Made by a program: the position numbers and the translations under genes. The notes under the pieces are model-generated. The model searched no databases. It had not been told where the DNA came from and saw only the letters and a list, made by a program, of their open reading frames with translations. A stretch of 26,547 bases of DNA from an uncultured archaeon (lineage in GTDB: Archaea; Asgardarchaeota; Thorarchaeia; Thorarchaeales; Thorarchaeaceae), in assembly GCA_964590575.1 (NCBI GenBank), contig CAZPWM010000039.1:1-26547 (forward strand), given 5' to 3'. Positions 9,207 through 22,917 of this stretch are shown piece by piece (within the stretch, counting starts at the first letter, position 1; every line of letters begins with the position of its first letter).

Positions 9207-10160
9207 TTAGCTTCTCTTGTGTCGGGTGAAACCTGAACAAGCATATGATTTGATGCCTTCTTTTTCGAGCTCATCTAGAATCAGGTTCATTCCAATGGAA
9301 TCTGAGCTATCATGTCCGGCAATCACAACATAGAGTCCCTCTTCCTCGCAAACTGTCTTGAGGTTATCCGGCATATGCATTGTGACTATTGTACTCACTC
9401 CTGCTCGAGCTAATTTCGGAATCGATTTGGGTCCAGCGGAGGTTCCTCCAGTGAAGAAGACAAATTTCTCTCCGACACTTCCACTTGAGCTACCTACCAG
9501 GATCTCTGGACCTGCTCCTACCTTCTCAGCCTCCTGGTACTCAGGAATCTCAAGCAGGACTTCAACAAGGTCTCCCAAGGTCTGTGGATTATTGTCCATT
9601 AGATATTTGGTGAGAAATTGGTACCCCAGTGAGTCCGCTGGTGTATGTGAACACATGAATGGCATATCAAGCAACTTAGCTGCATCTGTTGTCTGCGTGT
9701 GGTTACTCGCTTTTGTGTTAAAATGCACCTCTTTCATCCGTGCAGCCATAGCTGATTCAGCTTGAGCTATAGGTACACCTAATGCTGCCCATTGTTCAGG
9801 TTGGATTCTCATCACATAGTCTAGATTCGAGATACCAATACCATGTGGATGATGTGCTAGAACCAAATCAACTTGGTCCCCCTTCTGAGTTAATCGGTCT
9901 GCAAGGACAATTTCTCCAGTTCCGATATCAATCCCACAAAGGAGACTAGAAATTTCTCTGTCTTCATCTCCATAAAGCAATCTACAGTCTGTGTAGGGGT
10001 TCCATGTGACATCCTTGTCAGCTAGCTCTTTCTTTCGACCTTCAAGCTTTTCTAGGTCTTTCTTCGATTTCTCTAGAATCTTGTTGACCCTATCCCTTCC
10101 TCTAGGATCTGCCTCGATTCCCATATCGACTATCTTTCGATAAATATTTCCGAGTTTCAT
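9207..10160 (-). CDS. NIF3-like (NGG1p-interacting factor) dinuclear metal-centre protein
   Basis: GIEADPRG, NPYTDCRLLYG, GIDI, AHHPHG, HTPAD, GGT, MHM and IAGHDSSDSIGMN metal-ligand motifs. Confidence 0.85.
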   Translation of the reverse strand: MKLGNIYRKIVDMGIEADPRGRDRVNKILEKSKKDLEKLEGRKKELADKDVTWNPYTDCRLLYGDEDREISSLLCGIDIGTGEIVLADRLTQKGDQVDLVLAHHPHGIGISNLDYVMRIQPEQWAALGVPIAQAESAMAARMKEVHFNTKASNHTQTTDAAKLLDMPFMCSHTPADSLGYQFLTKYLMDNNPQTLGDLVEVLLEIPEYQEAEKVGAGPEILVGSSSGSVGEKFVFFTGGTSAGPKSIPKLARAGVSTIVTMHMPDNLKTVCEEEGLYVVIAGHDSSDSIGMNLILDELEKEGIKSYACSGFTRHKRS

Positions 10161-11517: not shown

Positions 11518-12759
11518 ATGTCAATCGAGCCCGTCAAACTTCAGTATATGGATAAGATTCGACTCATCAGTCGAGATGCTCGATTGACAATCGCTGCATG
11601 GATGTTTTCAGCTTTTGCTTTTGGGATCAATGATGTCTTGTTCAACCTGTATCTACTCAAGGCTGGTTTTGGTGAGGATTTCCTTGGGTTCTTCCTCTCT
11701 ATCTCTATGTTTCTAGCTGGCGGCCTAGCAATTCCAGCCGGAATGGTAGCTGATAGATATTCACGAAAGAAGGTTTTAATTGTGGCGAATTCCACCCTCT
11801 TTATTGCTATACTCATTCAATACTCTACTCTCTCCCCTCTTTACCTCCTACTATCTCAGCTTCTCTATGGAATTGGCTTTGGATTCACTAATGTCTGCTG
11901 GCAACCGTATACGGCAAGCGTCACAACTGAGGAAGAACGAGTGCATGTATTCAGTGTTCGATACGCTTTCTTTTTGGTTGCTAGTCTTCTCGGCTCATTG
12001 ACTGGGGGTTTTCTGCCAACAATATGGACCAACTTGGGAGTTGCTGTGGATTTACTGACTGCGTACAGATTTTCTTTATGGGCCGCGTTGGTCCCTCTAG
12101 CATTGGCAGTGTTAACCATTATTCCAATGACTACTGACATCGTCAACAAGAAGAGAAGGAGCTTCGGTTTTGGGAATGTCCGTAATCGAGGATTTATTGG
12201 CAAGTATGCATTAGCTTGGACAGTATCTGGTCTTGGTGCTGGCCTGTTCGTTTCTTTCTTCAATGTGTTCTTCAGTCTGGCGTTTAATGCTGACGAAACA
12301 ACCATTGGAATTATCTTCGCGTTCAATACCTTAGTCATGGCTGCAGGAAATTTTGCATCACCTGCCATAGTCGACCGATTTGGAAAGCTTGCAACAATAA
12401 TTTGGTTCCAAGTTGCATCAGTACCATTTCTCCTGTCGCTTGCTTGGTCGCCAATACTCTACTTTGCAGTTTTCGGATTTGTAGGCCGTGCTTTGTTCAT
12501 GAACATCGCATGGCCAGTGATGGATGTCTTCTATATGGAGGGTCTTGAAAAAGAAGAACAATCAACCGCGATGGGGGTCATCAACACAGGAGACTCCCTC
12601 AGTCGTGCTGTAGGTCTAAACATTGGGGGATGGTTGCTGGCTGCTGGATTTCTAAGAGTTCCGTATCTATACGCTACTATCCTTTATACTGCCAGTATTG
12701 TCTTGTTCTATTGGTTCTTTGGAAGATCGAATGTGGATACCCTTTCAGTTGAGGAATGA
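11518..12759 (+). CDS. MFS transporter
   Basis: About 12 hydrophobic segments, with MFS motif A in both halves (GMVADRYSRK; AIVDRFGK). Confidence 0.92.
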   Translation: MSIEPVKLQYMDKIRLISRDARLTIAAWMFSAFAFGINDVLFNLYLLKAGFGEDFLGFFLSISMFLAGGLAIPAGMVADRYSRKKVLIVANSTLFIAILIQYSTLSPLYLLLSQLLYGIGFGFTNVCWQPYTASVTTEEERVHVFSVRYAFFLVASLLGSLTGGFLPTIWTNLGVAVDLLTAYRFSLWAALVPLALAVLTIIPMTTDIVNKKRRSFGFGNVRNRGFIGKYALAWTVSGLGAGLFVSFFNVFFSLAFNADETTIGIIFAFNTLVMAAGNFASPAIVDRFGKLATIIWFQVASVPFLLSLAWSPILYFAVFGFVGRALFMNIAWPVMDVFYMEGLEKEEQSTAMGVINTGDSLSRAVGLNIGGWLLAAGFLRVPYLYATILYTASIVLFYWFFGRSNVDTLSVEE

Positions 12760-12765
12760 AATAAG

Positions 12766-12867
12766 GTGTGGCCAGGAGGCGGCAGAGCTCAATGTGGTAG
12801 GAGGGGGGGGAGTTATGTAATGAGGGCATGTTACGAAAACAAGGCCCTACCGATTCTCTGACCACAC
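12766..12867 (-). ncRNA. Candidate structured small RNA
   Basis: Two nested stems (10 bp and 9 bp) whose three non-Watson-Crick pairs are all G-U only on the minus strand. TATA-like AAGCTTAATA lies about 25 nt upstream. No family recognised. Confidence 0.5.
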
Positions 12868-12888
12868 ATGATGTATGTATTTGGAACC

Positions 12889-12898
12889 TATTAAGCTT
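12889..12898 (-). promoter_or_regulatory. BRE/TATA-like promoter element for the candidate ncRNA
   Basis: Minus strand AAGCTTAATA resembles boxes upstream of other genes here, e.g. AAAGGTAATA (15210-15201) and AAGGTTTATG (20073-20064). Confidence 0.45.
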
Positions 12899-12957
12899 GC
12901 TCTTCTATGTAGAAAGTGATATCGTTATGTACGACTCTACCAATCGCTATTCAATAA

Positions 12958-15183
12958 CTATAGAATGGGTATTTCAATCTCGAATGTTGTTTTCCTTTCA
13001 TTCAGTAGCTTGATAGTCCATCCATGAGCTTCAACAAGATGCTTGACGATAGCAAGACCATATCCTTGTCCGTTTTTGCTTGTAGTGAAACCTCGCTGAA
13101 AGATTTTAGACCGCTGTGTTGCAGGTATCGCTTTCCCATCATTTGTTACTTTGATACGATATACCATATCAGTCTTTGATACTCTCACATCTATGGTACG
13201 TGGTTGTCCATGTTGAATCGCGTTATCGAAGAGGTTTCGAAAGATTTGTGCGACCTTTCGTTGGTCCGCACTAACCATGGGCAGTTCCTCTTGAGAATAG
13301 CATACGTTCTCTGGGATGATTGAATCCGCAACCTCCTTTACTAAAGGAGTCAGTTCAACATTTACCGTTTCTTCAATTACTAGCCCTGCATCAGCAAGCG
13401 CAACCGAGTGGTCCAACATTTCACCGGTTTCATTCAACAGACTCTTGAGCCGCATAAGATGACTGTAATTCTGTTCTTCTTGAGTCAGTTCTATAAAACC
13501 TAGCATATTTTGAAAGATATTCTTCAAGTCATGACTCATACTATGGGCAAAGTCGCTAAGTTCTTCTTTCTGTTTTTTCAACATCTCAAGAGCTTCGTGC
13601 TGCTCTGTGATATCCACAATAACCCCTTCAATGTAACCTCTATCTGGCCAGTGGCTTAGTGAGAACCGCATCCATATATGTTCCCCATCTCTTCTTGATA
13701 CAGGGAGCTCAGTAACAATACGCTGGTCCTCACGAAGCTTGTTCTTCAGATCTTCCCATTCTTTTTGCTGAAGGAGGATGCTCTTGATTGAATTAGTTCC
13801 ATCTATAATCAAACCCTTCTTTTCATAGCCTAATTTCTTTGCAAATTGGTCATTGCACTCCAGAATCATTCCATCTGATATTCTAACCCTAAACAACCCT
13901 ACAAGGGCATTATTGTACAATTCCTTATAGCTCTCTCTACTTTCCATTAGCGCTTTTTCAGCTAGAACTCTATCTGTAACATTCTGTACATGGATAATGA
14001 ATCCTTGGAGGTCTTCTTCTTTCCCATATTTGATTGGTGAATAGACACAATCAATGTGCATGATGCCACTTTTACTCGTCTTATAGAGGTCATGAACTTT
14101 GACTTTCGAGAAATCAAATCGATACTCGGTCATCGCCATCTCTCCCCTACGAAGACTGTCCTTCACAAACTCAGGAGTGTTGGGATCACCGAATAGATCG
14201 AAACCGATAAATTCCTCTAGGGCACTAACCCCGAAAAGTTCAAGGGCGGCCATATTTGCACCCACAAGGATACCATCTGAGTCAAAGAGTTCGATGCAGA
14301 TTGGTGACTCTTCGAAAATCGTACGAAACATCTCTTCGTTAGCACTGAGTGCGTTTTCCTGTAGTATTCTCTCAGTGATGTCTTGGACTATCCCCATCAT
14401 CCGAACTGCTCTGCCTTCATCATCATATGTCACTTCACCTAATTCATGCACAAAACGAACTTTGCCATCTCTGTGCAAAACACGATGATCAATACTGTAT
14501 TTCTGCTTCTCATGAATTGCCTTGTCTACTGATTCATGAACAAATTCTCTATCATCCTTGTGAACTGAGTTCAGAAATGCCTCGTAGGTGGCCTCAAATT
14601 CTTGTGGGGCTAATCCGAATATTCGATAAATCTCATCTGACCAAACGATATTATCCTCAAGGATATTCCAATCCCAGTGTCCTATATGCGCAATCCGTTG
14701 TGCCTCTGCAAGTTTAGCTTCACTCTCTCGAAGTCTGTGTTCAGACTCAACGAGTGCCCTCTCAGTCCTACGTTTCTTAACTGCTGTAAGAATGTAGTGG
14801 GAGAGCTCAGCATACAAGCCTTCAATCTTTGATGAACTTTTTCGGATGTAGTAGTCTGCTCCAAGATTGAGCGCTTGAATCGCTATTTCTTCTCGACTCT
14901 TCCCAGTGAATATGATGACAGGAATATCAATCTCATTAGCCCTGACCTGCCTCAGTATCTCGAGACCTGTTGGTTGGTTCTGGCCAAGGTCGATGTCACA
15001 AACTGCAGCATCGAATTGATCCTCGAGAAGGAGATTCATTGCCTCCTCTGAAGTTTCCACTGGTACAATTTCGTACTCTGAACTCTGACGTTTCAAGAAT
15101 TGCTCACTGAGTTCTAGATGCACGGGGTCGTCGTCAATCATTAGAACACGAATAGCCATCTTTGCTCTCAGCCCCATACACAC
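12958..15183 (-). CDS. Hybrid sensor histidine kinase (REC-PAS-PAS-PAS-HisKA-HATPase)
   Basis: N-terminal receiver domain (MIDDD, CDIDL, FTG, YIRK), PAS/PAC repeats (IGHWDW..WSDEIYRIFG..VHKDDRE), H-box SHDLKN, N-box FRNLFDNAIQH, NDGKAI, GFTTS..GQGYGL. The start may be 15177 or 15159. Confidence 0.95.
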   Translation of the reverse strand: MCMGLRAKMAIRVLMIDDDPVHLELSEQFLKRQSSEYEIVPVETSEEAMNLLLEDQFDAAVCDIDLGQNQPTGLEILRQVRANEIDIPVIIFTGKSREEIAIQALNLGADYYIRKSSSKIEGLYAELSHYILTAVKKRRTERALVESEHRLRESEAKLAEAQRIAHIGHWDWNILEDNIVWSDEIYRIFGLAPQEFEATYEAFLNSVHKDDREFVHESVDKAIHEKQKYSIDHRVLHRDGKVRFVHELGEVTYDDEGRAVRMMGIVQDITERILQENALSANEEMFRTIFEESPICIELFDSDGILVGANMAALELFGVSALEEFIGFDLFGDPNTPEFVKDSLRRGEMAMTEYRFDFSKVKVHDLYKTSKSGIMHIDCVYSPIKYGKEEDLQGFIIHVQNVTDRVLAEKALMESRESYKELYNNALVGLFRVRISDGMILECNDQFAKKLGYEKKGLIIDGTNSIKSILLQQKEWEDLKNKLREDQRIVTELPVSRRDGEHIWMRFSLSHWPDRGYIEGVIVDITEQHEALEMLKKQKEELSDFAHSMSHDLKNIFQNMLGFIELTQEEQNYSHLMRLKSLLNETGEMLDHSVALADAGLVIEETVNVELTPLVKEVADSIIPENVCYSQEELPMVSADQRKVAQIFRNLFDNAIQHGQPRTIDVRVSKTDMVYRIKVTNDGKAIPATQRSKIFQRGFTTSKNGQGYGLAIVKHLVEAHGWTIKLLNERKTTFEIEIPIL

Positions 15184-15298: not shown

Positions 15299-16687
15299 TT
15301 GGGAATCCCATTCTTTGATGGTATCGGTGTCTTCTTTGGAAAAAGGAGATATCTAGCTTATTTCATTGTGTTTGTCGCAACTACCTTTCTCGGTCTATTC
15401 ATGTCTTGGTTAATGAGTACATACGCTGGCACAGCTCTTGAGGCAACTCTAGTGTACTTGTTTGCTTACATTGGCTCTGCAGGTACAATCTACTTTGCCT
15501 TTGGATCACTACTCACTGGCATTGGTATTGACCGACTATGGATTACAAGACGTGGTCGAGGAAGAACCACTGAACTGAAAGGTCTCAGTTGGATGGCTGT
15601 TTCATTTGCTATCTCGGTGTTCCTTTCAATTTTAACTGGTCCCATTACCATGCTCTTCTTTGCGATTTTCGGCTGGGTTGGTTGGATTGCTTTTCAAGGC
15701 TATCTCTCCACTAGAACAAGTTTGAGAATCGCTACAATTGCAGAACCTAAGAAAGGTGGTTTCCTACTAGGGACGGGGAGCTTTATTCTCCTTCTCATTG
15801 GTCTAGTTTTAATTGGCGCAGAAGCCCTTCTTGCTCTGTATTTGGTTCCAAATAACATACTAGGCATTGGTACTTTAATTGATGGCATCTTTTCGCAAGC
15901 GTCAGCTAATCTTGCTACTCAATTCAACTTTCTAATCGTAGCGTATGCTGCAATGGGTCTGTTTGCACTTGTGATGCTACTCTCATTTATCCGGAATGCC
16001 GGGAAAGGAGCAGCTTTGAACATTGCACTTCTAACCAACTTCATTGCTATCTATTCTGGGTACTTTCTAGTCAATGTGATGAGAAGAAACGCAATATTTG
16101 GAACTTCTCCCGTGGATATTGCTATGTCTTTATTCTTCTTGGCATATGCATTGAGTGGAATTGGTCGAACCGCTACTGAAGCTGCTGAAAAGCCTGGAGG
16201 ACGAACGGGTGATTTTGGACCCCTTGTCACATTCTTCTTGGCGAGCGGTTTCTTCTTTGTAGATAGCATAATCGCTGTAGCTTCAAATCCCGCAACTCTG
16301 ATCTGGAATTGGTTCGATGCTGGTATTCTTGCTGATCCACGATTTCTATTCCTCTTCAGAGACGTCGCGAAATTGATTGCTTTCCCATTAGCTGCCATCT
16401 TTACTGCAGTTTATTATCTACGCCATGAGCGTACAGAACGTATTGTGACTCGAGCAAGGGAAACAGGTGAAACATTTGATCCTGATGAAGTTGACAAAGA
16501 GATTGCGGAAAAAATCCCAGATTCTGGTGAATCTTGGACAAGTGAGAGAGCTGCGGGAATCAAGGAAGGGAAACCTGGACATGATCTCTCCGCACCAGAT
16601 TCACGGAGGTTGTCAATTGACGATAGTCGTCGTCTAGGCAAAGCAAAGCGCCTTGGTGATGACGATGAGGACGACGCAAGCAATTAG
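15299..16687 (+). CDS. Polytopic membrane protein of unknown function with a charged C-terminal tail
   Basis: 462 aa, roughly 10-11 hydrophobic segments, then an acidic/basic low-complexity tail. GGAGG SD at about 15285 and TATA-like AAACCTTATA at 15244-15253. Confidence 0.85.
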   Translation: MGIPFFDGIGVFFGKRRYLAYFIVFVATTFLGLFMSWLMSTYAGTALEATLVYLFAYIGSAGTIYFAFGSLLTGIGIDRLWITRRGRGRTTELKGLSWMAVSFAISVFLSILTGPITMLFFAIFGWVGWIAFQGYLSTRTSLRIATIAEPKKGGFLLGTGSFILLLIGLVLIGAEALLALYLVPNNILGIGTLIDGIFSQASANLATQFNFLIVAYAAMGLFALVMLLSFIRNAGKGAALNIALLTNFIAIYSGYFLVNVMRRNAIFGTSPVDIAMSLFFLAYALSGIGRTATEAAEKPGGRTGDFGPLVTFFLASGFFFVDSIIAVASNPATLIWNWFDAGILADPRFLFLFRDVAKLIAFPLAAIFTAVYYLRHERTERIVTRARETGETFDPDEVDKEIAEKIPDSGESWTSERAAGIKEGKPGHDLSAPDSRRLSIDDSRRLGKAKRLGDDDEDDASN

Positions 16688-20673: not shown

Positions 20674-22917
20674 ATGATAGAGATTGACATGTTCCCTCAG
20701 TTGTTATCACAAGCACTTGATACTCAGACAAAGAGGAAGGTCATAGCAGGTGGAATTGCGTCCTCTCTTCTGGCGATGAGTTTAGTTGTGTCTCTTGGTG
20801 TACTTGGCGGATGGAATTCTGAGCGATATTCACACACAGGACATCCGAATAGTCCTGTTTTCACAATCGATTTCACTGTATCGAATGACTTTGCTGATTT
20901 CATCCCATATTCAGAAGAGTTCACACCAAACGTCCCGTGGTATACAATCTCTGAGGGTTTGGGCAATGTTGTGAATCTCTATAAGTTTCCACAGCTGACA
21001 ATTGCTCAGCGTGCATTAATTCAAACTAATGGATTCACTTCTGTCCCAAGCGGATATGATCAGATATATGACATTCTCCTTAGTAACAAAGATAATGATA
21101 TACCTAGTTTTGTAAGCTCTGACGCGGTCTTGCATGCATTTCACATTCTATACGATTTAGCTCTTAGAGCGACCGAGGTTTACACATTTTGGGATTTGCT
21201 AGGAAATCTCACAGCCTCTTTGGTCAACAGCTCGTATGACCAATATCAGACCGCTCCCGAAGGTCGATGGAAAGATGCTGCTTTGAGAAATGTGATGTAT
21301 TTTTCTGTAGCCCAGTACCTACTAGATAACCAGACAATCCTTTATCCAGAGGTCGTAGACGAGGTTACAACTGTCCTTGCTCTGATCGAAAATCACTCCG
21401 AGATATCTTCTGCTTGGTTCCAGAATTATAAGGAGGATTTCAGTCAGTACGTTCCCCGAGGACACTATACTCGGACTGACAAGTTGAAACATTTCTTTAT
21501 GGCAATGATGTGGTATGGTCGAATAGCTTTCCGTTTACAGCCTGGTATCTCCCCATCTGGGATAGAGAAAGGTAAGAACGAAACAGCTCAAGCCATTCTC
21601 CTAACACTCGCATTGGAAGAAGAAGTAGAAGGTCTTGCACCTGGAACTGAGGGATACACAGTATGGGATGCAATTTACGAACCTACACGTTTCTTCGTTG
21701 GCGATGCTGATGACCTTCTTCCAAAAGAATATGGTCCATTAATTGATGATGTGTGGGGTGCTATATCTTCACTGAATGACTTAGACAATGAGGTTCTTCT
21801 TACAGATTTCATTGACTCTGCACTAGTCCTTCGTCCGCCACTCATTCTGTCATCTGTCATTAATGATACTCAGAATATCAATGACACAATGGGTTTCCGT
21901 TTTATGGGACAGCGATTTGTACCTGATAGCTATTTCCTGGGCCAGCTTGTCTATGACAATGTCGGAACGCAAATGCACCCAAGAGTACTTCCGAAGGGTC
22001 TAGATGTTATGGCAGCTCTTGGGTCAGATCGTGCATGGGAGTTGCTTGATGATCAGAAGGACTACTATCATTATATTGAACAAATGGAATTCCTGTGGGA
22101 CTCCGTTGAGAACATAAGCGCATCAGAATGGACTCACAATCTTTACTATCTTTGGCTCTATTCTCTTCTGCCACTTCTTAATGATCCTGGTGATGGCTAT
22201 CCAATGTTTATGCAGAGCGAAGCTTGGGTGGACAAACAACTGATGACTAGTCTTGCATCATGGACCGAGCTCAGGCATGACACAATTCTGTATGTCAAAC
22301 AATCGTATACGGTCGGTCCTACTTCTATAATGCCGCCTCCTCCTCCGAGGGTTATTGGATATGTTGAGCCCGTTCCTCGTGTTTATGCGCGCTTAGCCAC
22401 CTTGTGTGATATGATGATTGAGGGATTGACAAATCGAAGTATTGCCTCTGAACGAATTTTATCCAGATTAAACCAGCTTCATGACTTTTTACTTGAACTC
22501 AAAACAATCTCTGAAAAAGAACTCGCAGGTCAGCTCCTTACTGATGATGAAGTGGACCTCATAAAATATAGTGGTCGTTCTTTGGAAACAATCGCTTCAA
22601 TTGATGATTTTGAGGATTTGACCTCGGCAGCGGATGAAAAGATGGCTGTTGTCGCTGATGTGCATACCTACCCTGATCCTACAGAACCTGTAGTGCTTGA
22701 AGAAGCAGTTGGAAATGCTATGGTCATTTATGTGGCTGTCGAGATAGAAGGAAGAATTGTCCTCACCCGTGGAGGTATCTTTTCCTACTACGAATTTACT
22801 CAACCTCTAGATGACAGATTGACCGATGAAGCATGGCAAGAAATGCTAGCCTTAGGAACTGTTCCTGCAATGCCACTTTGGGTTGGAACCTTCGTTGCAG
22901 ATGCTGATATGGATTAG
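20674..22917 (+). CDS. DUF3160 domain-containing exported/membrane-anchored protein
   Basis: N-terminal hydrophobic helix; family-type motifs EDFSQYVPRGHYT, AMMWYGR, GFRFMGQRFVPD, PKGLDVMAALG, SWTELRHDTILYVKQSY, GYVEPVP, VADVHT, FSYYEF, RLTDEAWQ. Exact start uncertain. Confidence 0.88.
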   Translation: MIEIDMFPQLLSQALDTQTKRKVIAGGIASSLLAMSLVVSLGVLGGWNSERYSHTGHPNSPVFTIDFTVSNDFADFIPYSEEFTPNVPWYTISEGLGNVVNLYKFPQLTIAQRALIQTNGFTSVPSGYDQIYDILLSNKDNDIPSFVSSDAVLHAFHILYDLALRATEVYTFWDLLGNLTASLVNSSYDQYQTAPEGRWKDAALRNVMYFSVAQYLLDNQTILYPEVVDEVTTVLALIENHSEISSAWFQNYKEDFSQYVPRGHYTRTDKLKHFFMAMMWYGRIAFRLQPGISPSGIEKGKNETAQAILLTLALEEEVEGLAPGTEGYTVWDAIYEPTRFFVGDADDLLPKEYGPLIDDVWGAISSLNDLDNEVLLTDFIDSALVLRPPLILSSVINDTQNINDTMGFRFMGQRFVPDSYFLGQLVYDNVGTQMHPRVLPKGLDVMAALGSDRAWELLDDQKDYYHYIEQMEFLWDSVENISASEWTHNLYYLWLYSLLPLLNDPGDGYPMFMQSEAWVDKQLMTSLASWTELRHDTILYVKQSYTVGPTSIMPPPPPRVIGYVEPVPRVYARLATLCDMMIEGLTNRSIASERILSRLNQLHDFLLELKTISEKELAGQLLTDDEVDLIKYSGRSLETIASIDDFEDLTSAADEKMAVVADVHTYPDPTEPVVLEEAVGNAMVIYVAVEIEGRIVLTRGGIFSYYEFTQPLDDRLTDEAWQEMLALGTVPAMPLWVGTFVADADMD

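Follow-up and report, generated by a model that had tools for sequence, protein, structure and literature searches.

A predicted, uncatalogued family of sibling small RNAs across the order of Thorarchaeota, and a mechanism proposed for it

Our analysis of a 26,547-nt stretch of DNA from an uncultured member of the Thorarchaeaceae (the window, hereafter) identifies an uncatalogued, order-wide family of predicted sibling RNAs in Thorarchaeota, for which we propose a mechanism. Four paralogues are present in this genome, labelled A (the window copy), B, C and D, and 1-9 copies per genome are found at conserved, unrelated loci with a common loop. The predicted architecture is a terminal rod exposing a nearly invariant, C/U-rich loop of ~45 nt (Table 1). 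On sequence evidence this is a real RNA gene with its own promoter, and the independently promoted sRNA that a preliminary description of this DNA had suggested is upheld by the conserved spacing of the TATA box, by covariation and by the siblings at unrelated loci. That description overlooked the sibling family and the invariance of the entire loop, beyond its CCUCCU motif. An Rfam scan of the window returned 0 matches at the gathering threshold and one chance match (E 8.8) on the opposite strand. In the literature, no regulatory small RNA was found described for Thorarchaeota among sources in which subscription journals were sparse and whose supplementary motif tables could hold the RNA.

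Table 1. Positions of the predicted RNA gene, its parts and its neighbours in the window
Feature	Position	Strand	Details
Small RNA gene, class A copy	12764..12865	minus	~102 nt; covariance-model match 106.5 bits
TATA box TTAATAG	12888..12894	minus	its first T lies 29 nt before the RNA's first base
BRE-like purine-rich bases	12895-12904	minus	next to TATA box
P1 5' arm GUGGUCAG	12858..12865	minus	96.7% of cells paired, 30 orthologues
P1 3' arm CUGGCCAC	12768..12775	minus	partner of P1 5' arm
P2 5' arm CGGUAGGGC	12844..12852	minus	7/10 P2 pairs change on both sides
P2 3' arm GCUCUGCCG	12780..12788	minus	partner of P2 5' arm
Loop box 1 UUUUCGUA	12832..12839	minus	family form UUUU(C)GUA
Loop box 2 ACAUGCCCUCA	12821..12831	minus	UGCCCUCA part invariant
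Loop box 3 AACU-C(5-9)-UCCUACCAC	12794..12814	minus	predicted unpaired
Unpaired 3' overhang ACCU, then U-rich run	12764..12767	minus	
REC-PAS-PAS histidine kinase, upstream	12958..15183	minus	Pfam; not part of RNA
MFS transporter, convergent	11518..12759	plus	Pfam; incidental neighbour

The two helices of the rod lie exactly where they had been placed before, and the minus-strand polarity claimed for them is borne out (z -4.4, with 0/200 shuffles as good, versus z -1.6 on the plus strand); the gene as now delimited folds with z -3.6 on the RNA strand versus -1.3 on the opposite strand. Its boundaries were adjusted. The length of ~100 nt holds, but conservation begins at G12865 instead of near 12867, and the first stem is trimmed to 12865-12858 with 12775-12768, leaving 12767-12764 as an unpaired ACCU tail; the MFS stop codon said to adjoin the 3' end does so, ending at 12759. 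In the class A rod (30 sequences), 88.3% of cells pair and 8 pairs change on both sides, a score reached by 0/500 shuffles, while slid controls pair at 28-44%; in class B/D stems (39 sequences) 12/14 pairs are compensated, and these figures are not probabilities because the sequences within each set are related. RNAalifold, unaided, recovers the identical rod. Thus, as judged from these alignments, the sequence of the stem drifts while its pairing is retained. Finer details of the earlier fold fared less well: the UGUU/AACA hairpin lacks covariation, its outer pair being possible in only 8/30 orthologues, and of the two CCUCCU motifs invoked, the second sits in the stem and is present in 1/36 class A copies. 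A switchable fold is possible in the sense of being compatible with the data. GGUAGG/CCUACC is exact in 15/36 copies with 81.7% of cells paired. For a possible alternative pairing of AGGGC (top of P2, RGGGY) with loop GCCCU, 94.7% of cells are compatible, all changes being one-sided and none compensatory. Box 1 may also take part, with UUAC/ACGAAAC, in a weak inner helix without covariation.

Promoter and loop are conserved in a distinctive pattern. A TATA-like hexamer lies 27-33 nt upstream of the stem in 57/59 leaderless copies, at exactly 29 nt in 42, and this spacing backs the TATA box proposed earlier, four similar boxes of which occur elsewhere in the window. Pairwise identity among 22 orthologues is 0.84 in the TATA box, 0.41 in the spacer, 1.0 at +1 to +8, 0.96 in the loop and 0.31 downstream. 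When orthologues were selected by the kinase alone, the RNA followed in 22/23 within the genus, with boxes 1 and 2 essentially unchanged; box 2 is unchanged in 30/30 orthologues and in 22/22 copies picked by kinase synteny. Our claims of invariance rest on these 30 orthologues and the kinase-synteny copies, and motif counts found through the boxes themselves, being circular, were not used. A variable spacer separates box 2 from box 3, and the latter has a predicted mean unpaired probability of 0.8-0.99. Within box 3, CCUCCUA (12804-12798) matches exactly the final 7 nt of the 16S tail, which end in this sequence in 6/6 family 16S loci. ACC-N 3' ends are found in 45/48 class B and 4/4 class D copies, and the SRP RNA of the same genome also ends in a stem and ACCU. 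A protein-coding reading was rejected, as the 62-codon GUG frame from +1 is broken by non-triplet indels and by variation of the C-run (6-9) among orthologues. A tRNA or tRNA-like identity was likewise rejected: ARAGORN called no tRNA or tmRNA in the window, and 33/33 called tRNA genes of this genome (G000) encode NCCA, whereas the RNA mostly carries ACCU. ARAGORN places introns in 17 of these tRNA genes, several at non-standard positions, and calls a tRNA-Sec. A scan of sigma-70 promoters and terminators, with models unsuited to archaea, was blank. Elsewhere in the window, a DUF3160 protein is encoded at 20674-22917, and long frames at 600-1700, 9207-10160 and 15299-16687 (366, 317 and 462 aa) have no Pfam match.

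The family extends over nearly the whole order. The two-box pattern was found in 85/87 genomes of the order, including 24/24 of high quality, with 276 matches versus 9 for the reversed pattern. Conservation, proposed earlier as a check, is confirmed by BLAST, which finds the element in 36/36 family genomes, and the covariance model matches in 26/26. In the sister family, represented by a single genome, one divergent copy (E 0.005) retains TATA box and stem; the model gave 0/123 matches in other Asgard genomes under strict filters by which weak matches may be lost, and viral contigs gave 0 matches to the RNA. A scan of genome collections returned at least 80 titled matches, and among those listed all are archaeal, mostly named Thorarchaeota. 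One class B subfamily (L058, L083, L118, L128, L422-L424, L431, L435), whose members have nearly the same promoter and GAGUAGGAG leader, is represented several times per genome; its contexts vary, some copies lie in tandem, and it looks like a recent expansion. In at least 10 genomes (L240-L269 and model matches) a copy lies 5-35 kb from the porA operon on the same contig, which is probably plain synteny.

Mobile elements are known to integrate into tRNA genes. Here the sequences at two junctions indicate that the RNA gene serves as the integration site for two related integrases, an observation new to this study. In one genome (G033), an element of ~24.7 kb lies between an intact RNA copy and a duplicate of its 3' part, with a 50-bp direct repeat common to both; it carries a tyrosine integrase, whose frame starts at the duplicate, and a ParB-like gene. 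This element (L272:948-1082, L273:4933-6224; G033:C119:24447-49223) also encodes a 1182-aa protein and several membrane proteins with no Pfam or PHROG match, and is possibly a thorarchaeal provirus or plasmid. In a metagenome locus (L500:1-634), a related second integrase (54% identical to the first over residues 24-101) stands beside a 3'-part RNA copy in the same type of junction. Both junctions hold extra GCCCTCAT repeats beside or outside the core, possibly integrase binding sites. In one integrase survey, just 1/16 integrase loci abuts the RNA. Duplicates of the 3' part in which no integrase was seen (G011 and G002; L270:871-970 and L006:2878-2913, 5.1 and 1.3 kb downstream of intact copies) are likely decayed islands. 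Another genome (G001:C7:28603-31574; L209, L210) has a pair of RNase P RNA genes separated by 2.3 kb, of which the second is decayed at its 3' end; this arrangement may mark another integration event.

The genes around the copies bear on whether the RNA is a cis element or a repeat, both of which the preliminary description had named as alternatives. In other genera, class A is divergent to a gene different from the kinase, and its downstream neighbours mostly differ from genome to genome, which fits integration at the RNA gene. The conserved neighbour of class B is a radical-SAM gene, that of class C a small divergent gene that we take to be OsmC-like, and class D copies directly follow the stop of a ~125-codon frame. 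That frame (L238:2948-3337; G000:C79) is conserved without a Pfam match, and in this genome and L070 its early codons include UGAGGGC, the complement of box 2. Since the classes keep their own conserved neighbours, the RNA is neither a MITE nor the kinase 3' UTR. Were the RNA a cis element, belonging either to the 3' UTR of the kinase or to the MFS terminator, this would agree with its position 92 nt past the kinase stop, oriented like the kinase, in 22/23 genus orthologues, and with the class D copies directly after a stop codon; such a reading is nevertheless very improbable, as the RNA has its own TATA box at a fixed spacing, the kinase synteny is confined to this genus, the MFS neighbour is not conserved, class A adjoins another gene elsewhere and the neighbours of B and C are unrelated. 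We give as little credit to a dispersed repeat, MITE or mobile-element remnant, a reading that synteny and covariation already largely refute. In its favor are copy numbers of up to 9 per genome, a subfamily in varied contexts and two integrases abutting copies, but classes A-D keep their neighbours across genera, the stems show G-U pairs and compensatory changes, viral contigs hold no match, and integrases at 3'-part duplications are the pattern of insertion into a host RNA gene.

The leaders of class B provide the main argument that the loop base-pairs. Between the predicted start and the GGCG stem of these copies lie 19-63 nt, complementary to box 3 in 31/44 leaders and to box 2 in 17/44 (z<-1.65); control flanks are complementary to box 3 in 13/131 cases downstream and 6/68 upstream. 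All these leader counts exclude copies without a TATA box at 45-100 nt; for the motif counts, 26 mutually dissimilar leaders were retained out of 62. GGTAG/GTAGG occurs in 12 of them (2.6 expected) and GGG[CT]A/GAGGG in 15 (4.2 expected), while a canonical 16S-type SD occurs in 1 (1.4 expected). What the leaders complement is therefore the loop of the RNA itself and not 16S. These complements of both boxes suggest pairing by the loop, although the leaders are related and the complement could in part be left over from a duplication of the 5' arm. The leader is lost in one class B copy (L443), and the class A copy of the window is leaderless. In several genomes, hairpins are inserted at fixed positions between the loop boxes, and the 3' side of box 1 accepts such insertions (L025:1531-1658, L028:1531-1660, L030, L034, L109, L122, L271, L454, L461, L483 and L488; one copy at L034 has three). 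Their position between boxes fits modular single-stranded seeds; against the pairing model, two orthologues carry a hairpin inside CCUCC|UACC. Moreover, ~40 invariant bases and near-universal retention exceed the usual needs of a seed, which counts against antisense action. The variable leader, G-start stem and ACC overhang of classes B and D suggest 5' maturation by RNase P, whose RNA (type A) was found in 56/59 genomes.

The mechanism that we tentatively prefer is bipartite antisense action by a trans-acting, stand-alone sibling sRNA of Thorarchaeota, with masking of Shine-Dalgarno (SD) sequences as the favored outcome. The rod would be a stabilising handle presenting two seed boxes, the C-rich CCCCUCCUACCA and UGCCCUCA, which would pair with a bipartite purine-rich site, GGUAGG(A)/GGAGGG followed after 2-9 nt by (U)GAGGG/GGGCA. 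Because this site resembles a ribosome-binding region, bound mRNAs would lose 30S loading, and every sibling promoter might feed its own signal into one common output. The class B leader carries such a site, with which it could hide the loop or exert feedback before its removal, probably by RNase P in view of the G-start stem and ACC overhang. Precedents for this mechanism are the LhrC siblings and C4, compared below.

The SD motif is in use in this genome: GGAGG precedes 9.0% of 1610 starts, compared with 1.1% of 7913 internal ATGs. Genome-wide start regions gave -0.54 kcal/mol with box 3, no better than shuffles (-0.08 to -0.85), and -0.89 kcal/mol with the 16S tail, better than shuffles. 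Strong SDs are not extended toward the ACC of the loop, G preceding TAGGAG in 12/71. In 714 orthologue pairs with a second genus, a comparison that took in 2.0 Mb of the 3.16 Mb of a single genome there and annotated-style start regions from -35 to +25, the best conserved site (-17.6) was within shuffled-box controls (-14.7 to -19.2). By gene family, none was prominent except strongly SD-led operons, and cell-surface families reached at best z -2.1 among all families of at least 4 tested. Pairing to a specific mRNA ribosome-binding site thus gave no target above controls, in tests that short seeds could escape. Several individual candidates were rejected. Neither porA nor cdhC explains the invariance. 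The porA site is private to this genome (1/30). The top conserved match, cdhC, is not significant, and the gene is present in only 26/59 genomes; its GTAGGAGG occurs in 14/26, for which Val-Gly codons and 16S pairing also account. The geometry of an anti-start CAU 8-10 nt before the anti-SD applies to classes A and C but fails in the other two, B and D; starts of the form GGGC-AUG show no enrichment (6/5313 versus 10/6048). For an rRNA guide RNA (C/D, H/ACA or U3-like), the longest Watson-Crick loop match of 7-9 nt is within shuffles, and the internal-loop pocket is the variable part of the RNA. An 8-nt identity with 16S (UCGUAACA) is at chance level, and comparison with 16S, 23S, SRP and RNase P RNA gave no long complementary stretch beyond shuffles.

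Since no mRNA target beat shuffled controls, a protein decoy or scaffold stays a strong rival, which we consider plausible if somewhat less probable. Of the two earlier proposals, SD masking is our best guess as well, and a protein sponge is plausible. The invariant loop would bind a conserved protein acting in translation, hibernation or RNA decay, perhaps a reader of the 16S tail or of poly(C), and the siblings would titrate this protein under different promoters, with the class B leader hiding the site before processing. Titration of proteins by RNA siblings is known from Csr/Rsm and Y RNAs. This reading draws on the long invariant loop, with a C-run variable in length but fixed in identity, on retention in nearly all genomes of the order and on the negative outcome of every target search, long complements included. 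It has to reckon with the lack of a partner among the candidates sought (Ro60/TROVE in 0/61 genomes, with a search control positive in 2/14) and with leaders that retain Watson-Crick and wobble complements in shifting registers, which pairing explains more directly. It is unlikely, by comparison, that the RNA is an order-wide housekeeping RNA copying the 16S 3' tail as a general throttle on SD-led translation; having no dedicated target, such a throttle would account for the failure of any one target to stand out. Passing bound mRNAs to RNase P may be a further role, since ACCA comes directly after the anti-SD CCUCCU, the layout of engineered external guides. In an external guide sequence, an anti-target stretch followed by an ACCA-type end directs RNase P. 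A narrower link to this enzyme seems quite improbable: loop UACCA would mimic the RCCA end of pre-tRNA and pair with the GGU of L15; the RNA would then either inhibit RNase P or, if an SD were paired to CCUCCU, act as a natural external guide sequence. The L15 of thorarchaeal RNase P RNA reads GGGUAG in 31/31 parsed, complementary to loop CUACC, and UACCAC stays intact where a hairpin is inserted before it; a synthetic L15-directed oligo ending in CCUACCC inhibits E. coli RNase P (PMC6658616). However, the complement exceeds 5 nt in some genomes only (13/31 continue GAGAG), P15 covaries internally while the small RNA is unchanged, the sister-family copy has UAACCG, and boxes 1 and 2 are left unexplained.

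An order-wide sibling family with a housekeeping-like invariant loop suggests a so far unrecognised level at which translation is controlled. Its Asgard hosts are relatives of the eukaryotic ancestor, and the RNA is found across almost the whole order of Thorarchaeota. For uncultured cells it provides both a lineage marker and a target for probes, and its use as an integration site offers a handle on thorarchaeal mobile elements that tRNA-based searches would miss. If the throttle reading were true, the RNA would be a natural RNase P guide RNA or a mimic of the ribosome's tail in an Asgard lineage.

Among known RNAs, Y RNAs of ~100 nt have paired ends, a pyrimidine-rich loop, paralogues, a bulged-C helix, a GGUC start and Ro60 as partner. 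The thorarchaeal RNA resembles them in length, paired ends, pyrimidine-rich loop and paralogues. A Y RNA identity was rejected, given the Ro60/TROVE result, the absence of a bulged-C helix and a class B without GGUC start. LhrC of Listeria comprises multi-copy siblings of 105-121 nt whose unpaired C-rich motifs pair with AG-rich SD regions (PMC8079631); this genome similarly has 4 copies, with an unpaired ACUCCCC in each. As described in the same source, LhrC is built of two stem-loops with a single strand between them, its UCCC motifs are short and its targets are known, whereas the RNA reported here has a single terminal rod (PMC8079631). It further differs by its ~45-nt invariant loop, its archaeal promoter and the lack of an Rfam match.

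The leader of the C4 antisense RNA of phages P1 and P7 contains copies of the target boxes. Class B leaders likewise hold complements of two exposed boxes, and an RNase P cut is suggested for classes B and D. C4 has a G-start closing stem, two exposed boxes and a precursor leader, and RNase P cuts at the stem's 5' end (PMC5320573). In that account C4, of phage origin, folds into three stem-loops and its loops vary (PMC5320573); here we find one rod, an invariant loop and variable stems, in a gene that is chromosomal, order-wide and unmatched in Rfam, and no C4-style target boxes were found downstream of the RNA. The Cuckoo/RSs0680 (CcsR) RNAs share an anti-SD-like loop motif, variable stems and paralogues, and have 2-4 adjacent hairpins with CCUCCUCCC in each loop (PMC4615179); the thorarchaeal RNA differs in its one rod with a single CCUCCUACC and two further boxes. 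In archaea, sRNA154 and sRNA41 of Methanosarcina mazei are intergenic sRNAs that mask ribosome-binding sites, and sRNA41 represses ACDS genes, according to the text available from PMC5867862. The likeness to sRNA41 lies in cdhC, the top, not significant, conserved match of our RNA; sequence and fold are different as far as Rfam shows, and that available text describes no siblings (PMC5867862). Thus, although its structure departs from that of each of these families, the thorarchaeal RNA may act like LhrC, C4 or sRNA154/41.
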